64,000 nt of DNA from Escherichia coli 042 (GTDB lineage Bacteria > Pseudomonadota > Gammaproteobacteria > Enterobacterales > Enterobacteriaceae). This document shows, in pieces, positions 7,170 to 43,272 of this stretch. Numbering within the stretch: the stretch's first letter is position 1; every line of letters starts with the position of its first letter. The notes beneath the pieces were generated by a model, which saw only the letters and a list, made by a program, of their open reading frames with translations, was not told where the DNA came from and did no database searches. The stretch lies in assembly GCF_000027125.1 (NCBI RefSeq), contig NC_017626.1; one strand, given 5' to 3'. The position numbers and the translations under genes are program-made.

Positions 7170-9317
7170 TTACGCCAGTGCCGCTTCGCGCAGGCGAGTT
7201 TTCAACTTGTTGTACTCGTCAATCACGTACTGCTCGGCGGCGCGCTGATCGGCGATCGACTCGACGCGCACGGCGCAGTATTTGTATTCCGGCGTTTTCG
7301 TAATCGGGCTTAAGTTTTCGGTAACCAGCTCGTTACAGGCACCAATCCACCACTGGTAGGTCATATAAATCGCCCCTTTGTTCGGACGATCGCTGACCTG
7401 CGCACGGGTGATAATTTTGCCTTTACGCGAGTGCACCCAAACCAATGCCTCATCTTCAATACCCAGACGTTTGGCGTCTTCGGTATTGATTTGTGCGTAG
7501 CCAGGTTCATCAGCCAGCGCCGCCAGTGCCGCACAGTTACCGGTCATCGAACGGCAAGAGTAGTGACCAACTTCACGCACCGTTGACAGTACCATCGGAT
7601 ACTCGTCGGTGAGTTTGTCGATTGGCGCTACCCAGTCGCAGGTGAAGAACTGCGCCAGACCGTTCGGGGTATCAAACTTCTCTTTAAACAGATAAGAAGT
7701 CCCCTGATCGGCATCTGAAGTATCGCGGCAAGGCCACTGAATGAAGCCCAGTTCGCCCATTTTCTCGTAAGTCGCACCGTAGAAATCCGGGCACAGATGA
7801 CGCAACTCATCCCAGATCTCCTGGGTGTTGTTGTAGTGCATCGGATAACCCATACGAGTGGCAATTTCACTGATGATTTGCCAGTCCGTTTTCAGATCCC
7901 ATTTCGGTTCAACTGCTTTGAAGAAACGCTGGAAGCCACGGTCAGCCGCAGTAAACACGCCTTCATGCTCGCCCCACGACGTTGACGGTAAAATAACATC
8001 CGCCGCCGACGCGGTTTTGGTCATAAAGATGTCCTGAACGATAACCAGTTCCAGATCTTCAAAGGCTTTACGTACTGCCGACAGCTCCGCGTCAGTTTGC
8101 AGCGGATCTTCGCCCATAATGTACGCGGCACGCACTTCGCCATGCGCTGCGCGGTGCGGCAGCTCGCTGATGCGATAGCCGGTATGCGCTGGCAGGCTTT
8201 CCACGCCCCAGGCTTTGGCGAATTTCTCGCGGTTAGCCGGATCTTTCACGTACTGGTATCCCGGATACGTATCCGGCAGCGCGCCCATATCGCAGGCACC
8301 CTGCACGTTGTTCTGACCACGAACCGGGTTTACACCCGCATGCGGCTTACCGAGGTTACCGGTCAGCATCGCGAGGCTGGTCAGAGAACGCACGGTTTCC
8401 ACGCCCTGGTAGAACTGGGTTACACCCATGCCCCACAGGATGGCGGCGCTTTTCGCCTGGGCATACATCCGTGCCGCCTGACGAATCTCACTGGCGCTGA
8501 CGCCGGTGATATCTTCAACCGACTCCGGCGTGTAGCCTTCAACGATTTTACGATACTCTTCAAAGCCTTCTGTACGGGAAGCGACGAATGCTTTGTCGTA
8601 CAGATTTTCTTCAATAATGACATGGCCCATCGCATTCAACAGCGCGATGTTCGAGCCGTTTTTCAGTGCAATGTGGATGTCCGCAATGCGCGCGGTTTCA
8701 ATTTTGCGCGGATCGCAGACGATAATTTTCGCCCCGTTACGTTTAGCGTTAATTACGTGATTCGCCACGATTGGGTGGGAATCCGCCGGGTTGTACCCGA
8801 AAACGAACACTAAATCGGTATTATCAATTTCGTTAATAGCATTGCTCATTGCGCCATTACCGACCGATTGGTGCAGACCTGCAACCGATGGGCCGTGTCA
8901 GACACGAGCGCAGCAGTCAACGTTATTGGTACCAATAACGGCGCGCGCAAATTTTTGCATTACATAGTTGGTTTCGTTACCCGTACCACGCGAGGAGCCG
9001 GTCGTCTGGATGGCATCCGGACCGTACTTCTCTTTGATGGCGCTCAGGCGCTCGGCAACGTAATTCAGTGCCTCATCCCAGGAAACAGGTTCGAGTTTGC
9101 CGCCACGCTGGCGACGGATCATGGGGGTTTTCAGGCGCGGGGTCAGGATCTGGGTATCGTTAATGAAATCCCAGCCATAATAACCCTTCAGACACAGGGT
9201 ACCCTGGTTGGTTTTCCCCTGCGCTGCCTCCGCCCGGACGATTTTGCCGTTATCGACGACCAGGTTGATTTTGCAACCTGATGCGCAATAGGGGCAAACC
9301 GTGACGACTTTTTTCAT
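7170..9317 (-). CDS. fdhF: Formate dehydrogenase H (selenocysteine/molybdopterin enzyme); in-frame UGA at 8898-8900 decoded as Sec
   Basis: ORFs 8898..9317 and 7170..8849 are in the same frame, separated only by TGA (complement of tca at 8898-8900); together 715 codons; N-terminal Cys cluster (CPYCASGC). Confidence 0.95.
8850..8897 (-). other. SECIS mRNA stem-loop directing selenocysteine insertion at the fdhF UGA
   Basis: Immediately 3' of the UGA on the coding strand: CACGGCCCAUCGGUUGCAGGUCUGCACCAAUCGGUCGGUAAUGGCG, which I recognise as the fdhF SECIS hairpin. Confidence 0.85.
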
Positions 9318-9368
9318 CGGTCTCGCTCCAGTTAATCAAATCACGCATACGCGCTCTCGACTACAGTA

Positions 9369-9384
9369 TGCATCTTTTATGCCA
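9369..9384 (-). promoter_or_regulatory. Sigma-54 (-24/-12) promoter of fdhF
   Basis: Minus-strand sequence TGGCATAAAAGATGCA matches the TGGCAC-N5-TTGCA class with conserved GG and GC, about 55-70 bp upstream of the fdhF ATG. Confidence 0.8.
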
Positions 9385-9439
9385 CATTTTATTTGGGGTC
9401 ATTCCCTGATATTACGGGCACTATTTATTCAAAACTCTG

Positions 9440-9500
9440 ACGAAAAACAGGCTGTCGTCAGTTTTGACGTGACGAAACGAAATACCGCGTGACAGCCATC
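9440..9500 (-). promoter_or_regulatory. Putative FhlA upstream activating sequence for fdhF
   Basis: Cluster of repeated CGTCA/TGACG motifs (tttcgtcacgtcaaaactgacgacag) roughly 100 bp upstream of the sigma-54 promoter; exact site boundaries not resolved. Confidence 0.45.
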
Positions 9501-9514
9501 ACGCGGCAGACATT

Positions 9515-10981
9515 TTATTTTTTCTCGACGACGGGACTTGCCTGATACCCGCCGCCCAGCGATTTCATCAACTGAATGCTTTGGATCACCCGGCGGCTGT
9601 CCAGCATCAGTAATGACATCTCCTCGGCAAGCACTGGCAACCGGGCTTCGGTGGCCTGTAAGCGGCTGGTTAAGCCGCGTTGATAGGCGGCCTCGGCAGC
9701 GCGCTGGGTGAAGCGCGTGGCTTCCACGCGTTCAGCCTGCATCTCTCGCTCGTCGTTGAGCGTTTGCAGACGCGTGCCGTTGACGGCAACGTCGCGCACC
9801 GCATTCAGCACTGACTGGTTGTAACGTTCAATCATCATGTTGCTGGCGGCGCGAGTGCCTTCGAGATTGGCATTCAACCGTCCACCGTCAAACAGCGGCA
9901 ATTTCAGACCCGGGATAAAGTTGAACTGGCGACTGGTTTTTTTGAATAAGGTATCCAGGTGGATAGAATCCAGGCCGAAAAACGCTTTGATATCAAAGCT
10001 CGGATAGAACAGCGCCCGCGCGGAATCCACCTGATCTAATGACGCCTGAACATACCAGCGCATAGCTTGCAGATCCGGGCGTCTGGCGAGCAACTCATAA
10101 GAGAGTGTCGCCGGAATACCGGTCTGGACTCGTGGTAATGCCACCGGTTTGATCTCCGGCATATCGCTGGCTCCCGCGCCAATCAATGCGCGCAGAGATT
10201 CTCTCGTTTCGGTGATTTGCCCTTTGACGGCAGCAATTTGTTTATCGACCGCCAGAATCTGTGCCCGCGCGCCGTGGAAAGGCACTTGCGCTTCCAGACC
10301 GTGCGCCACTTTACTCTGGTGCGCTTTTACCGCGTAATCAATCACATCGCGAGTTTGTTCTAACAGATCGAGCATCTGATAGCTGGCCTGCATACTGTAA
10401 TAAAGCTGCGCTACGCCCGTGGTCAGCGATAGCTCTACTGCTGCGGTTTCTGCCAGCGCGGCATTATGCGCGCCAATGGCAGCGGCAACCGCTGAGCGAT
10501 GCACACCCCACAAATCGAGATCCAGTCCGGCAAACAAACCTACTGTGGCTTCCGTATAGTACGGCCCGTCCATACCCAGTGCTGGCGCATCCATCGCATA
10601 AGGGCTTAAAAAGCCGTTCGCCGAGACACGTTGGCGGTTGAGCATCCCTAACGCTGCGACCTGTAATTGTGAACCGGCATCTAACAAATCGGCCTGCGAC
10701 TGCGCTTTTTCTTCCCGCAGTTTCGCTTCGGCGAGGGTGTGTGAACCACTTAGCGTCCGTTGGATCAGCGCATCCAGCTGCGGGTCATTGAGTTGTTTCC
10801 ACCACTGCGCCTGCGGCCAGCCGGAGCTGGCAAGATGAATATCATCGGCCAGTTTGATTTGTTCCGGTTTGAGCTGTTGATGAGGTGCAGAATCCTTACG
10901 TACCAGGGCACAGCCGGAAATCAGCGTCGTGCTGCCGAGAATGCTGCACAACAGCAGACGTGAAAGTTGACGATTGATCAT
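9515..10981 (-). CDS. mdtP: Outer membrane factor (TolC-like) of the MdtNOP efflux system
   Basis: 488 aa with lipoprotein signal peptide (LISGCA); OMF family; overlaps mdtO. Confidence 0.9.
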   Translation of the reverse strand: MINRQLSRLLLCSILGSTTLISGCALVRKDSAPHQQLKPEQIKLADDIHLASSGWPQAQWWKQLNDPQLDALIQRTLSGSHTLAEAKLREEKAQSQADLLDAGSQLQVAALGMLNRQRVSANGFLSPYAMDAPALGMDGPYYTEATVGLFAGLDLDLWGVHRSAVAAAIGAHNAALAETAAVELSLTTGVAQLYYSMQASYQMLDLLEQTRDVIDYAVKAHQSKVAHGLEAQVPFHGARAQILAVDKQIAAVKGQITETRESLRALIGAGASDMPEIKPVALPRVQTGIPATLSYELLARRPDLQAMRWYVQASLDQVDSARALFYPSFDIKAFFGLDSIHLDTLFKKTSRQFNFIPGLKLPLFDGGRLNANLEGTRAASNMMIERYNQSVLNAVRDVAVNGTRLQTLNDEREMQAERVEATRFTQRAAEAAYQRGLTSRLQATEARLPVLAEEMSLLMLDSRRVIQSIQLMKSLGGGYQASPVVEKK

Positions 10982-13029
10982 TGCGTGGCTCCTTGTACCT
11001 GTTCCTTGGCGGGCGTTAATGCCGGGGCTGTCCAGTCTGGCAAGCGGGCGAAAAGCTGGCAGACGTGTTGTTCCTGTTTTAATAAGGTGGGCAGGATGGC
11101 CTGCGAGGCGGGTGTCTCTTCAAGCGTTATTTGAGGAGAACGGCTGAGTGCGGTTGCCAGACCGGCAGCGTATTTCTCAAGTGCGTCGGCAAACTGACCT
11201 GCTCTGTCCGGCTGTAGTGCGTTATCCAGCGCCTGCGCCGAGTTCCAGGTTGCATCCCAGGCGTGAAGAATATCGCGGCCCTGACGAATAACCGTTTGCG
11301 AACGTTCAATCAGTAGAGCGCGTTCTTCGCTGTCCAGTTGACGCTCCAGCGCCACGCGTTGGAACATCTCTTCACAGGCATTAAACGCCGCATGCAGACC
11401 TATACGAATTTGCAGATAAGTGCGCAGAGCCGTGACTTCCTGCTGGCGTGGGATCCGCATTACTTTACTCAACATACCCAGCGCGCCAGCCAGTTTTTGC
11501 GGCAGTGTGCGCGCTTCACTTTCAGGCCAGACAAAGGTGTAAATCACCGCGGACACCACGGTACCAATGATGATACCCAGGGCGCGATCGCGAATTTCCA
11601 CCAGGTCGTACACTGGGCCAAAAACGTTTTCGAGCGTGGCGAGCGCGAAGGTGACCACCATCTGTGTGCCGATATAAGAAGAGCGTTCAGAGCTGGTGGC
11701 AATCCATGCGCCCAACAGGAAAATCGGTGCCAGCACAAACAGCAATTCGACAATATTGTCCAGCCAGGGCATGACCAGTAACGTGAATAACAGCGCCAGA
11801 ATTGCACCGAAGAAGGCACCGCCAAAACGCAGCGCCATTTTCTGATACGACGAACCAACATTCGGGTTAGCGACGATCACGCAGGTCAGCATACAGGTGT
11901 GAATGCCTTCCCAGTCCACGCCGCTGTAGAAGGTGTAACAGATCAAACAGGCGAGCAGCGTTTTTACCGCGTAGCGCATATAGTCTGGATTGGTAAAAGC
12001 GTCGGCGACCATTGATGGCGGTTTGGTGGCGGGCGTTGGCGGCGTATTCGGGTCCATCTGACCCAGTTGTAACAACGTCTGGCAGATATTCTCCAGGTTA
12101 CATTCCCGTGCCGCCATCGCTTCACTTTCAGTGATCCGCCAGTCGCTTTGCCAGCACTGACCTTCGGCAATGGCATGCTGCAGTTTGTTGATTTCTGAGG
12201 CTAATTTTTGCCGAAATTCAATAATTGCCTGAGAATCAGCAAAAGAGGTGGGATCGTAGCGATTCAGCGTCGAGTAAATGTAGGTTACCGTAGCCACACA
12301 GCTTTGCCACCATGCGCTCTGAGTTCGCCAGTTGGCATCGTCCGCGAGGCAAAAGACATTGAGTTTTTGCAGCGCCAGCGCCTCTCTTTCAATCCGCGTT
12401 TCGGGTAGCGGTGTGAGGCTGTCCGTCAGGTGGCTAATGGCATCATCAAGCCGATCATTAAGCGCCTGATGCATCTGCGTGATAGCGCGGCTGGGAAACC
12501 ACAGCACGCCGATTAACGTCATCAATAACGTCGGATAGAGGCCAACAACGATACACCACAGGGTTAAGCGCACGACCACTTCCGGATAGTCGAGCATGGC
12601 GGGGAAGGTTTGCCCGTAAATAGCGACAATGGCGACGGCGAAAAAGACCAGCCCCAACCGATGGGTGCGCATCAAAAACATACAGCCCATCAGGATCGGC
12701 CCGGCGATGATCAATCGGATCAACGGTTCGCCGTATGACCATTTGTAGATCAAAAACAGGCTGCCGATCTCCAGCATCGTGGCGACCACAAACAAGATCG
12801 CGACAAATTTGGTGTAAAACGCGTTCGACTGAATACCGTAAAACAGTACTGCCAGTGATAACGCCACAAAAGGGATCTCAAAAGTCATTGAGATCAGAAT
12901 CACCAGCAGGCAGCCTACCCAGAGTTGCATAGTCTGCGGCACGCGGCCTGGTCGCCGCTCGCTTAACTCTTCATGAAAGAACGCCAGCAGCCTGACCACC
13001 GGTAATGGCAGGGAGTTGAGCGCGCTCAT
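10978..13029 (-). CDS. mdtO: FUSC-family inner membrane efflux component
   Basis: 683 aa with two hydrophobic domains separated by a soluble region; recognised as YjcQ/MdtO. Confidence 0.9.
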   Translation of the reverse strand: MSALNSLPLPVVRLLAFFHEELSERRPGRVPQTMQLWVGCLLVILISMTFEIPFVALSLAVLFYGIQSNAFYTKFVAILFVVATMLEIGSLFLIYKWSYGEPLIRLIIAGPILMGCMFLMRTHRLGLVFFAVAIVAIYGQTFPAMLDYPEVVVRLTLWCIVVGLYPTLLMTLIGVLWFPSRAITQMHQALNDRLDDAISHLTDSLTPLPETRIEREALALQKLNVFCLADDANWRTQSAWWQSCVATVTYIYSTLNRYDPTSFADSQAIIEFRQKLASEINKLQHAIAEGQCWQSDWRITESEAMAARECNLENICQTLLQLGQMDPNTPPTPATKPPSMVADAFTNPDYMRYAVKTLLACLICYTFYSGVDWEGIHTCMLTCVIVANPNVGSSYQKMALRFGGAFFGAILALLFTLLVMPWLDNIVELLFVLAPIFLLGAWIATSSERSSYIGTQMVVTFALATLENVFGPVYDLVEIRDRALGIIIGTVVSAVIYTFVWPESEARTLPQKLAGALGMLSKVMRIPRQQEVTALRTYLQIRIGLHAAFNACEEMFQRVALERQLDSEERALLIERSQTVIRQGRDILHAWDATWNSAQALDNALQPDRAGQFADALEKYAAGLATALSRSPQITLEETPASQAILPTLLKQEQHVCQLFARLPDWTAPALTPAKEQVQGATQ

Positions 13030-27613: not shown

Positions 27614-28402
27614 TCAGGCAGCTTTCGCGTTTTCTTCGACGCGGTTGATGCTGCGGTAGAGATGGTCAAAACGTTCGTTATCAAACTGTTGGCTGCTGCC
27701 GTCGTAGAAGACGTGCCCCTGGCGCAGGGCGACGATGCGTTCGCAGTAGCGCAGGGCGTAATCCACCTGATGCAGCGTGACGACCACGGTAATGCCGTCG
27801 TTCTGGTTAATGTCGCGCAGGGTGTCCATCACGATGCGCGCCGATTCCGGGTCCAGCGAGGCGATGGGTTCGTCCGCCAGAATCACCTTCGCCTGCTGCA
27901 TCAGCGCGCGGGCAATCGCCACACGCTGCTGCTGTCCGCCGGAGAGGGTGGAAACTCGCTGATGGGCAAAGTGCACCATGCCAACGCGGGTCAGCGCCTG
28001 TAACGCGCGCTGTTTCTGCTCGCGGGTGAAGTAGCTAAAACAGGTGCGCCAGAATGGCGTGCTGCCGAGCGCGCCAATCAGCACGTTCTCCAGTACGCTC
28101 AGGCGATTCACCAGGTTGAATTGTTGGAAGATGTAGCCGGTATTGGCGCGGCTTTTGCGGATATCGCGGGCCAGGCGGCCTTCGCGCTGGACTGTGCGGC
28201 CCAGCAGCTCGATATGGCTACCGGCAGATTTATCGCCGGTAATCAAACCGCTTAAGTGACGTAAAAGGGTGGATTTGCCGGAACCCGACGGCCCAAGCAG
28301 AGCCACCATTTCACCGTGATGAATGTTCAGATCAACCGCGTGCAGCGCCTGATGCTGATTGAAGGTTTTGGCGAGCTTCTCGACACGGATAATCGTTTGC
28401 AT
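27614..28402 (-). CDS. phnC: PhnC, phosphonate ABC transporter ATPase
   Basis: 262 aa; Walker [10 protein letters not shown]; ABC signature LSGGQQQR. Confidence 0.9.
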
Positions 28403-41004: not shown

Positions 41005-43272
41005 TTACGCTTTCACACACATAACGTGGTAAATACCGTCAATAATTTCTGTCCCTTCTGTTTCGTGTTCAAATCCAGGGAAATGATGGTCCCAGGATTG
41101 CAGCGAGCGTAAATAACTTACTTGCGGACTGTTTTTATCGCCGAAGTTTTCACCAGACAGCAGCATCGGGATTCCTGGCGGATACGGGATAACTGAGTTT
41201 GCCGCGATGCGTCCTGGCAGATTTTCAATGGATACCAGTTCGACATTGTTGTCGACAATCGCGTTGTACGCTTCACGCGGGGTGATTTCCGCCACCGGCA
41301 GGCCGGAATAGGCTTCGTTCAACCGTGCGCCAGGGTTGTTTTCTTTCAGCCAGGCAAACATGGTGTCACCCAGATCGTGAATCCCCATGTTCGCGTAAGT
41401 GTCAGGATATTGTTCAACAAGTTCCGGCATCACCTGCGCCAGCGGTGTGTTGGCGTCATAGTGGCGTTTGAAGGAGCAAAGGGTGTTAACCAGAGTCCCC
41501 CATTTCCCACGGGTTATGCCCATAGAGAACAGGAACATGATTTGGAAGTCAGTGGTGCGGGTAGGCACAATGCCGTGGCGACCAAGCCAGGCAGTGACCA
41601 GCGCCGCCGGAACACCGGTTTCTTCCAGTTCACCATCTTCACCCATTCCCGGAGCAAGGATGCTGACTTTAATCGGGTCGAGCATACTCCAGTTATCCGG
41701 AATATCTTTGAAGCCGTGCCAGCTTTCGCCCGGATGCATGACCCAGCAGTCCTGAACGGTGGTCAGCAGTTTGGTTGGTGCGTCAGCAAAGTCATAGGTT
41801 TTGCCGGTTTGTGGGTCGGTGACGACTTCTTTGTTCCACGGTTTGAAGAACCAGCTACCGTCAGCGGTGAACTCTTTATACAGCCGCGCCATCGCCTGAC
41901 GGAAATCAACCGCTTCGTCGATCACTTCCTGGGTCAGTGACAGGCCGCTGTTGCCGTCCATCATCGACACTGCCACGTCGTTGGATGCACAGATGGCATA
42001 CAGCGGGGAGGTGGTGGCATGCATCATGTAGGCCTGGTTGAAGCGGGAGAAGTTAATCGCCCCACGACCTTCACGTACATGAATATAAGAGGCCTGTGAC
42101 AGTGCATTCAGTAGTTTGTGGGTGGAGTGGGTGGCGAAAACGGTAGGACCGTTGTGATCGCCAGGTTCGCCGCGCATGGCATAGTGATCGGCATAGATCG
42201 GGTTGAAACGTGCATAGCCGTACCAGGCTTCGTCAAAGTGCAGACGATCGGAGGTTTTTTCCAGCAGATCCTGCGCTTCTTTAGCGTTATAACACACGCC
42301 GTCATAGGTACAGTTGGTCACTACGCAGTAAGACGGTTTTTGCCCGGCTTTGTCTTTAGTCAGCGGGCTTTCACTGATTTTCTTCTGCAAGGTTTCAGGT
42401 TGCATTTCCTGCGGATAGATTGGCCCGATAATGCCGTAGCGGTTGCGGCTTGGCACCATGTAGACCGGTTTCGCGCCCGTCAGCATCAAGCCTTGTTCGA
42501 TGGATTTATGGCAGTTACGGTCAACGACCACGACATCGTTATCGGTCATGCAAGCCTGCATGATGGTGCGGTTAGAGCCGGAAGTACCGACGACTACCGA
42601 CCAGGAGCGATCGGCACCAAATACGCGTGCGGCATATTTTTCGCTTTCGCCAAATGCGCCAGTATGGTCAAGCAAAGAACCGAGGGAAGTTCGTTCGATG
42701 CCCATGTCGGTGCGGAACAGATTTTCACCATAGAAGTCATGGTAGAAACGTCCGGCGGGTGTTTTGGTAAAACCAACGCCACCCTGGTGGCCTGGCGCTG
42801 CCCAGGAATATTCATGGATGTCGCTATATTTCATCAGCGCGCTGAACAGTGGCGGCAACAGTTGCTGGCGGTAGCGGGTCATCGCGGCAACGGCGCGTCC
42901 GGCGATAAAGTCGGCGGTATCTTCCAGAATCCAGGCGAATTCATCGACAAGCTCCAGCAGATCCCGGTCCATTGCGGCGAGGGCTTTTTCCCGATCGCCC
43001 AACAGGAAGACCGGCACGTTTTGTTGGCGCTCATGAAGCTTACCGATCAATTGTCTGACGTTTTGATGTTCGTCCGGATGTTCCATTTGATAGCTGAACA
43101 TCAGGCAGTCAATGGCTTCGTTTGAAGAGAGAATGGCAAAACCATCATCAAAGGAGGTGGATTTAATCACGGTAACATTTTGCTGGCTTAAAGCATCTGC
43201 CAGACGCTCAACGGCGTTACCGACCCAGGTGTCTTGATGGAGAAACTCGCTTTCAACAATTAATACTTTCAT
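41005..43272 (-). CDS. adiA: AdiA, biodegradative (acid-inducible) arginine decarboxylase
   Basis: 755 aa from MKVLIVESEF...; PLP-fold decarboxylase with conserved STHKLL lysine motif. Confidence 0.95.
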   Translation of the reverse strand: MKVLIVESEFLHQDTWVGNAVERLADALSQQNVTVIKSTSFDDGFAILSSNEAIDCLMFSYQMEHPDEHQNVRQLIGKLHERQQNVPVFLLGDREKALAAMDRDLLELVDEFAWILEDTADFIAGRAVAAMTRYRQQLLPPLFSALMKYSDIHEYSWAAPGHQGGVGFTKTPAGRFYHDFYGENLFRTDMGIERTSLGSLLDHTGAFGESEKYAARVFGADRSWSVVVGTSGSNRTIMQACMTDNDVVVVDRNCHKSIEQGLMLTGAKPVYMVPSRNRYGIIGPIYPQEMQPETLQKKISESPLTKDKAGQKPSYCVVTNCTYDGVCYNAKEAQDLLEKTSDRLHFDEAWYGYARFNPIYADHYAMRGEPGDHNGPTVFATHSTHKLLNALSQASYIHVREGRGAINFSRFNQAYMMHATTSPLYAICASNDVAVSMMDGNSGLSLTQEVIDEAVDFRQAMARLYKEFTADGSWFFKPWNKEVVTDPQTGKTYDFADAPTKLLTTVQDCWVMHPGESWHGFKDIPDNWSMLDPIKVSILAPGMGEDGELEETGVPAALVTAWLGRHGIVPTRTTDFQIMFLFSMGITRGKWGTLVNTLCSFKRHYDANTPLAQVMPELVEQYPDTYANMGIHDLGDTMFAWLKENNPGARLNEAYSGLPVAEITPREAYNAIVDNNVELVSIENLPGRIAANSVIPYPPGIPMLLSGENFGDKNSPQVSYLRSLQSWDHHFPGFEHETEGTEIIDGIYHVMCVKA

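Follow-up and report, generated by a model that had tools for sequence, protein, structure and literature searches.

A sigma-54 promoter and putative FhlA enhancer between mdtP and fdhF in Escherichia coli 042

The question raised by this locus is whether the short gap in front of fdhF, which encodes formate dehydrogenase H, holds a sigma-54 promoter together with an enhancer for the formate-activated regulator FhlA, as a preliminary description made from the letters alone had proposed. We analysed the whole stretch of 64,000 nucleotides from E. coli 042, hereafter the window, with emphasis on the region upstream of fdhF. The window is E. coli chromosome: the fragment 9200-9620 has a counterpart of 95-100% identity in 5419 of the 5426 complete E. 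coli genomes, and the RefSeq annotation of the fragment in those genomes gives fdhF with mdtP upstream. The genes are arranged in the order yjcS-ytcA-mdtNOP-fdhF-yjcO-gltP-nrf. Both mdtP (10981..9515) and fdhF (7170..9317, from the RefSeq annotation and the open reading frames) lie on the minus strand, leaving a gap of 197 bp at 9318-9514, into which the control region fits, as had been claimed. The gap differs from that of K-12 MG1655 by a single base, at 9393, which falls in the spacer and outside the promoter and enhancer elements, and published K-12 results therefore apply directly to the sequence described here.

The two open reading frames of fdhF, 8898..9317 and 7170..8849, share one frame across a TGA, so that an in-frame TGA (selenocysteine) follows codon 139. 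The SECIS element of fdhF was found on the minus strand at 8905..8851 (Rfam SECIS_2, 87.1 bits, E = 2.8e-19), immediately 3' of that TGA, and is the expected selenocysteine insertion signal. It was the sole match in an Rfam search of 8700-9700, and the mdtP-fdhF gap gave none. In one genome, NZ_CP032515.1 (strain 118UI; L001 6304-8451), the RefSeq product of fdhF reads 'formate dehydrogenase N subunit alpha, selenocysteine-containing', which looks like a product-name slip, the same gene being labelled formate dehydrogenase H in other genomes.

The -24/-12 element for sigma-54 (RpoN), TGGCATAAAAGATGCA, was read on both strands and lies on the minus strand at 9384..9369, which is -67..-52 from the fdhF ATG. 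Its GG occupies 9383-9382 (-25/-24) and its GC 9371-9370 (-13/-12), with exactly 10 bases between the doublets, as in sites of the TGGCAC-N5-TTGCW type. The minus-strand element and its placement before fdhF were thus correctly described at the outset, whereas the coordinate given for the GC, 9371-9372, was one base off. How much weight can such a match bear? The loose consensus TGGCACNNNNNTTGCW, with up to two mismatches allowed, has 37 matches in the window against 45 expected; it is not enriched, and a motif match alone is therefore no evidence for a promoter. A scan with a weight matrix for RpoN sites (PMC7658346, Table 2), which had been proposed as a check, places the fdhF site third of about 128,000 window positions, at 13.6 bits, but two sites score higher. 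What lifts the fdhF promoter above chance is its position, its conservation in 77 of 80 species and the published binding data. A consensus scan of 9000-9900 returned no sigma-70-like promoter. The two higher-scoring sites are both intragenic, TGGCGCGGCTTTTGCG at 28144-28159 on the plus strand and TGGCGCAGCAGTTGCG at 664-679 on the minus strand, the latter antisense in nrfC, and both are absent from the tables in the main text of the sigma-54 ChIP-seq study of E. coli.

Several published data sets bear on the promoter. By sigma-54 ChIP-seq in E. coli, Bonocora et al. (2015; PMC4591121, Table 1) recorded a peak of score 41 ahead of fdhF, OS41, whose minus-strand motif is GTGGCATAAAAGATGCA; their table also flags the promoter as experimentally confirmed in EcoCyc, and the fdhF 16-mer in the window is identical to that motif. 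Zhao et al. (2010; PMC2831329) list the fdhF element, at -67..-50 from the ATG, as one of 18 known sigma-54 promoters, and in their microarrays fdhF expression rose 3.0-fold with overexpressed sigma-54 and dropped 2.2-fold on deletion of rpoN. A gSELEX peak of the RpoN holoenzyme has been reported in the fdhF/mdtP spacer (Shimada et al., 2021), and the Salmonella orthologue, TGGCATAAAACATGCATA, was bound in ChIP-chip, with fdhF being 29-fold sigma-54 dependent there. The reading of 9384..9369 as the fdhF sigma-54 promoter is supported by these observations.

Using the rule of Bonocora et al. (PMC4591121), which puts the start 19 bp beyond the centre of the motif, we predict transcription to begin at 9358 on the minus strand, with the C of the -12 GC 12 nt before it and the fdhF start codon 41 nt after it; the supplementary files of Cho 2014 hold no fdhF entry, and hence no mapped start. 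The predicted 5' untranslated region, 41 nt with +1 (9318..9357, minus strand), carries a Shine-Dalgarno GGAG at 9329-9326, and GGAGC and the ATG are invariant in alignment A1, which compares the sequences upstream of fdhF in 22 genera. The E. coli leader gave no significant RNA fold (z = 0.69). In many genera the leader contains a small GCGC-N4-GCGC inverted repeat (A1 columns ~226-250, about 9353-9336 in the window), which Enterobacter, Kosakonia and Lelliottia have lost by deletion and which likewise shows no significant fold in E. coli.

Upstream of the promoter, the proposed enhancer consists of CGTCA/TGACG repeats. On the minus strand CGTCA begins (5' coordinates) at 9474, 9469 and 9442 and TGACG at 9460, so that four copies fall within 37 bp (9474-9438), compared with a density of 3.2 per kb over the window. 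Of the ~64,000 segments of 60 bp, 28 hold four copies, with starts at 9411-9420 among those listed, which fits one locus around 9474-9438 as the sole such stretch in 64 kb. Measured from the 5' end of the -24 element, the cluster occupies the stretch 54 to 90 bp upstream, and relative to the predicted start at 9358 it lies at -116 to -80; the earlier statement that such a cluster sits about 100 bp upstream is accordingly right if the distance is taken from the start site. The repeated unit is best written TCGWCA/TGWCGA. In these terms the putative FhlA enhancer (upstream activating sequence, UAS) has a core, TTCGTCA-CGTCA-AAAC-TGACGA, at 9455..9476 on the minus strand (-118..-97), which includes the palindrome CGTCA-N4-TGACG, and a promoter-proximal half-site, TTCGTCA, at 9438..9444 on the minus strand (-86..-80), 27 bp downstream of the core. 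Together these half-sites span -118 to -80, inside the range of roughly 70-150 bp upstream of a sigma-54 promoter that is expected of an FhlA enhancer.

It could be argued that the repeats have nothing to do with fdhF and are either a chance cluster or part of the terminator of mdtP. A strong terminator-like hairpin does follow mdtP on the minus strand at 9483..9508, immediately upstream of the repeats, as found by a terminator scan and by RNA folding (9514..9478 folds at -18.1 kcal/mol, z = -4.3, and 0 of 200 shuffles fold as well), and its T-rich tail overlaps the first half-sites. The palindrome region also folds as RNA, if weakly (-7.9 kcal/mol, z = -1.6). Yet in alignment A1 the enhancer block is invariant where the sequence farther upstream is unalignable among genera, and the hairpin is present in only some of the aligned genera; moreover, the distance to the promoter is fixed, the core recurs at other FhlA-regulated genes and the density of repeats is unique in 64 kb. 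The conservation data thus largely refute an origin unrelated to fdhF regulation, to which we give next to no credence. The palindrome was also considered as an RNA terminator in its own right and rejected, given its weak fold and a conservation pattern that is that of a DNA site. The T-rich tail of the mdtP hairpin, TATTTCGTTTCGT, extends into the first FhlA-type half-sites, so that terminator and enhancer are packed together.

The comparative evidence comes from 80 fdhF loci, each from a different enterobacterial species. The promoter pattern TGG[CT]A-N7-TGCA was found 51-84 nt before the ATG in 77 of the 80, and TGG.AT and TGCAT of the promoter are invariant across the 22 genera of A1. The repeat cluster is equally well kept: the invariant columns TCG.CACGTCA (9475-9465), TG.CGA (9460-9455) and G.CA (9441-9438) coincide with it, TTTCGTCAG is nearly invariant at the proximal half-site, and the other invariant intergenic columns, apart from a lone one in the spacer, belong to the promoter and the ribosome-binding site. 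When 77 loci were anchored on the core GWCA-N4-TGWCGA and half-site offsets were scored outside the anchoring pattern, GWCA occurred at offset -5 in all 77 and GTCA at offset +27 in 72, and in these 77 species the enhancer cluster coincides with the most conserved intergenic block. A weaker signal, GTCA at offset -25, was present in 37 of the 77 loci; in E. coli 042 it corresponds to a possible distal half-site at 9490..9493 on the minus strand (-135..-132), located in the descending arm of the mdtP terminator hairpin, which may possibly act as an extra half-site.

The distance between enhancer core and promoter is also constrained. Sixty-nine loci have 84/85 bp from the core to TGGCAT and the other eight have 75/76 bp, with nothing between, and the distance is fixed even in Atlantibacter and Arsenophonus, whose spacer cannot be aligned. 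The distance from promoter to ATG, by contrast, varies freely (51-84 nt). The core-promoter spacing is therefore quantised by one helical turn, as expected if an activator that loops across so short a stretch must occupy one face of the helix, and this pattern suggests that the enhancer is helically phased relative to the promoter. In three loci, from Entomohabitans, a Leclercia sp. and an Enterobacter sp. (L078, L082 and L085), the enhancer core and the -24/-12 element have both decayed, although the upstream region of fdhF (around 1000-1200) is still recognisably homologous, and in Phytobacter massiliensis (L059) the enhancer core is lost and the -24 weakened (TGGCAA), with the -12 TGCA intact. 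These changes suggest that regulatory control of fdhF has been lost in the four lineages. Conservation across 22 genera, the constant arrangement in 77 loci and joint loss indicate that enhancer and promoter are under purifying selection as one unit.

Is the conserved block an FhlA enhancer? The pattern GWCANNNNTGWCGA, with four matches in the window against 0.43 expected, has exact occurrences in MG1655 ahead of hydN and of hyfA and in the hycA-hycB interval, the chance expectation being about 0.01 matches per locus. The hydN core is the palindrome TCGTCA-CTAG-TGTCGA and the hyfA core is GACA-N4-TGTCGA, while the hycA-hypA intergenic region has the fdhF-derived core only with one mismatch. 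Birkmann and Boeck, in 1989, reportedly located the upstream activating sequence of fdhF some 100-120 bp ahead of the start. The literature, including PMC4987338, names hydN-hypF, hyc and hyp as FhlA targets, and hyf likewise. FhlA is described in reviews as binding upstream of fdhF and as activating the gene together with formate; fdhF is also FhlA-dependent in Salmonella, and in Proteus this dependence was shown by reporter assay. The assignment to FhlA thus rests on conservation, on the motif shared across the regulon, on a position ~100 bp upstream of a sigma-54 promoter and on the statements in the literature. With the conserved block, a core common to other FhlA-dependent regions and a gene known to depend on FhlA, the original suggestion of an FhlA enhancer is supported.

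Existing descriptions of FhlA sites fit this enhancer only moderately well. The 16-bp consensus CATTTCGTACGAAATG, attributed to Leonhartsberger et al. (2000) in PMC4987338, has in the form quoted there a best full-length match of 9/16 in the gap, which is not distinctive in the window, although its half-site, as quoted, is matched twice at 7/8, at 9472 and 9477, on the distal side of the enhancer. A 14-bp weight matrix for FhlA sites (PMC7658346) selects the palindrome CGTCAAAACTGACG as the best site in the gap, at 8.2 bits and an undistinctive rank of 96 in the window, whose top matrix matches are found at other places. Because neither the matrix nor the 16-bp consensus singles out the fdhF enhancer, we used the core derived from orthologue conservation instead. 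A full-text literature search with fragments of the enhancer sequence returned unrelated papers only. Two other occurrences of the core GWCA-N4-TGWCGA in the window, a perfect palindrome, TCGACATTGTTGTCGA, at 41240-41255 inside an ORF of 756 aa and GACAATATTGTCGA at 11747-11760 inside mdtO, are without a suitably placed sigma-54 element and so are probably due to chance.

The half-sites might also be used, mainly or additionally, by HyfR, a paralogue of FhlA whose gene lies in the hyf operon. HyfR, as well as FhlA, reportedly activates that operon (a result that is said to be due to Skibinski et al. in 2002), and a core of the fdhF type, GACA-N4-TGTCGA, lies upstream of hyfA. The activator named for fdhF in the literature is, however, FhlA, and we found no source with HyfR acting at fdhF; a role for HyfR would in any case add to the explanation by FhlA rather than replace it. 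We consider such a role improbable.

Taken with a probability of roughly 0.93, the region is the native fdhF control region, comprising a sigma-54 promoter and an upstream FhlA enhancer, with a start near 9358. In this mechanism, sigma-54 RNA polymerase binds 9384..9369 as a closed complex that cannot start transcription alone. FhlA, an AAA+ protein activated by formate, would bind the array of TCGWCA/TGWCGA half-sites at about -118 to -80 (9476..9438), base contacts being presumed here from the literature, as is the looping of the DNA between enhancer and promoter by which FhlA would contact the polymerase. ATP hydrolysis would then open the promoter and transcription would start near 9358, the exact nucleotide being a prediction. 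Seen from the promoter, the enhancer would always lie on the same face of the helix.

The sigma-54/FhlA control region of fdhF is a classic, studied since the late 1980s, and is already known as a textbook case. The present locus is the same as fdhFp of E. coli K-12, with an identical promoter motif and a gap that is the same except at 9393, and no functional difference is expected from this one spacer substitution. The same plan is seen at hydN-hypF, hyfA, hycA-hypA and hycA-hycB, each of which has, like fdhF, a sigma-54 -24/-12 element and an upstream cluster of TCGWCA/TGWCGA half-sites. At fdhF the core lies 84 bp from the promoter; for hydN the figure is about 74 bp and for hyfA about 108 bp (the latter two counted from the sequence). 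Bacterial enhancer-binding proteins at sigma-54 promoters in general, for example NtrC at glnAp2, work with the same architecture, in which GG-N10-GC carries the closed complex and the activator, bound some 70-150 bp farther upstream, acts through looping and ATP hydrolysis; the signal for FhlA, however, is formate bound by its N-terminal domain and not phosphorylation, and the half-site sequence is specific to FhlA. The locus has value as a positive control, the reading of raw sequence having located promoter and enhancer correctly. What the comparative data add is a compact description of the enhancer: four fixed half-sites, TCGWCA-CGTCA-N4-TGACGA followed 27 bp later by CGTCA, whose distance to the promoter is kept at 84/85 or 75/76 bp. 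This description could aid both the annotation of FhlA regulons in other Enterobacterales and the design of formate biosensors.

Between enhancer and -24 element lies a further conserved block, at 9386..9412 on the minus strand (about -54 to -28), with the consensus cCGTAataTC..g..aATacCCacaataaaA and high information content in 62 promoter-anchored loci. The sole K-12 difference (9393) falls inside this block. A strict IHF site was not found in the gap; a relaxed IHF-like match, TATCAGGGAATGA, has its 5' end at 9411 in the spacer (-53). It might be proposed that the spacer, or the repeats themselves, contain operators for a repressor, for example the nitrate regulators NarL/NarP, since NarL has been described as a repressor of fdhF and the spacer block is conserved, over -60..-29, without an assigned function. 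The repeats are nevertheless unlike a NarL site, and the NarL heptamer (TACYYMT) is absent from both strands of the gap, where, with one mismatch allowed, ATAAATA at 9428 is the one weak match, to the pattern in reverse complement. A review, moreover, attributes the nitrate and oxygen control of fdhF largely to lowered intracellular formate, and operators of this kind are in our view very unlikely. It is somewhat more conceivable, if still doubtful, that the spacer block and the one-turn quantisation of the spacing mark an additional and perhaps undescribed element at fdhF. Such an element could bind a protein that bends DNA or has a modulating role, or could itself be intrinsically bent, as FhlA might need in order to reach the polymerase over a short loop.

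A last observation concerns the hyc region of MG1655. The hycA-hypA enhancer is unlike that of fdhF in having two TGTCNA followed by two TCGACA. The hycA-hycB (L002 51-174) and hycA-hypA (637-847) regions share a near-identical GTCATTT(T)CGACA(C)TCATCGACA, and hycA-hycB also carries GTCATTTTTGACGA, an exact core of the fdhF type. From sequence comparison, hycA looks to be flanked by two paralogous FhlA enhancers; the site between hycA and hycB is the enhancer of the hyp operon.
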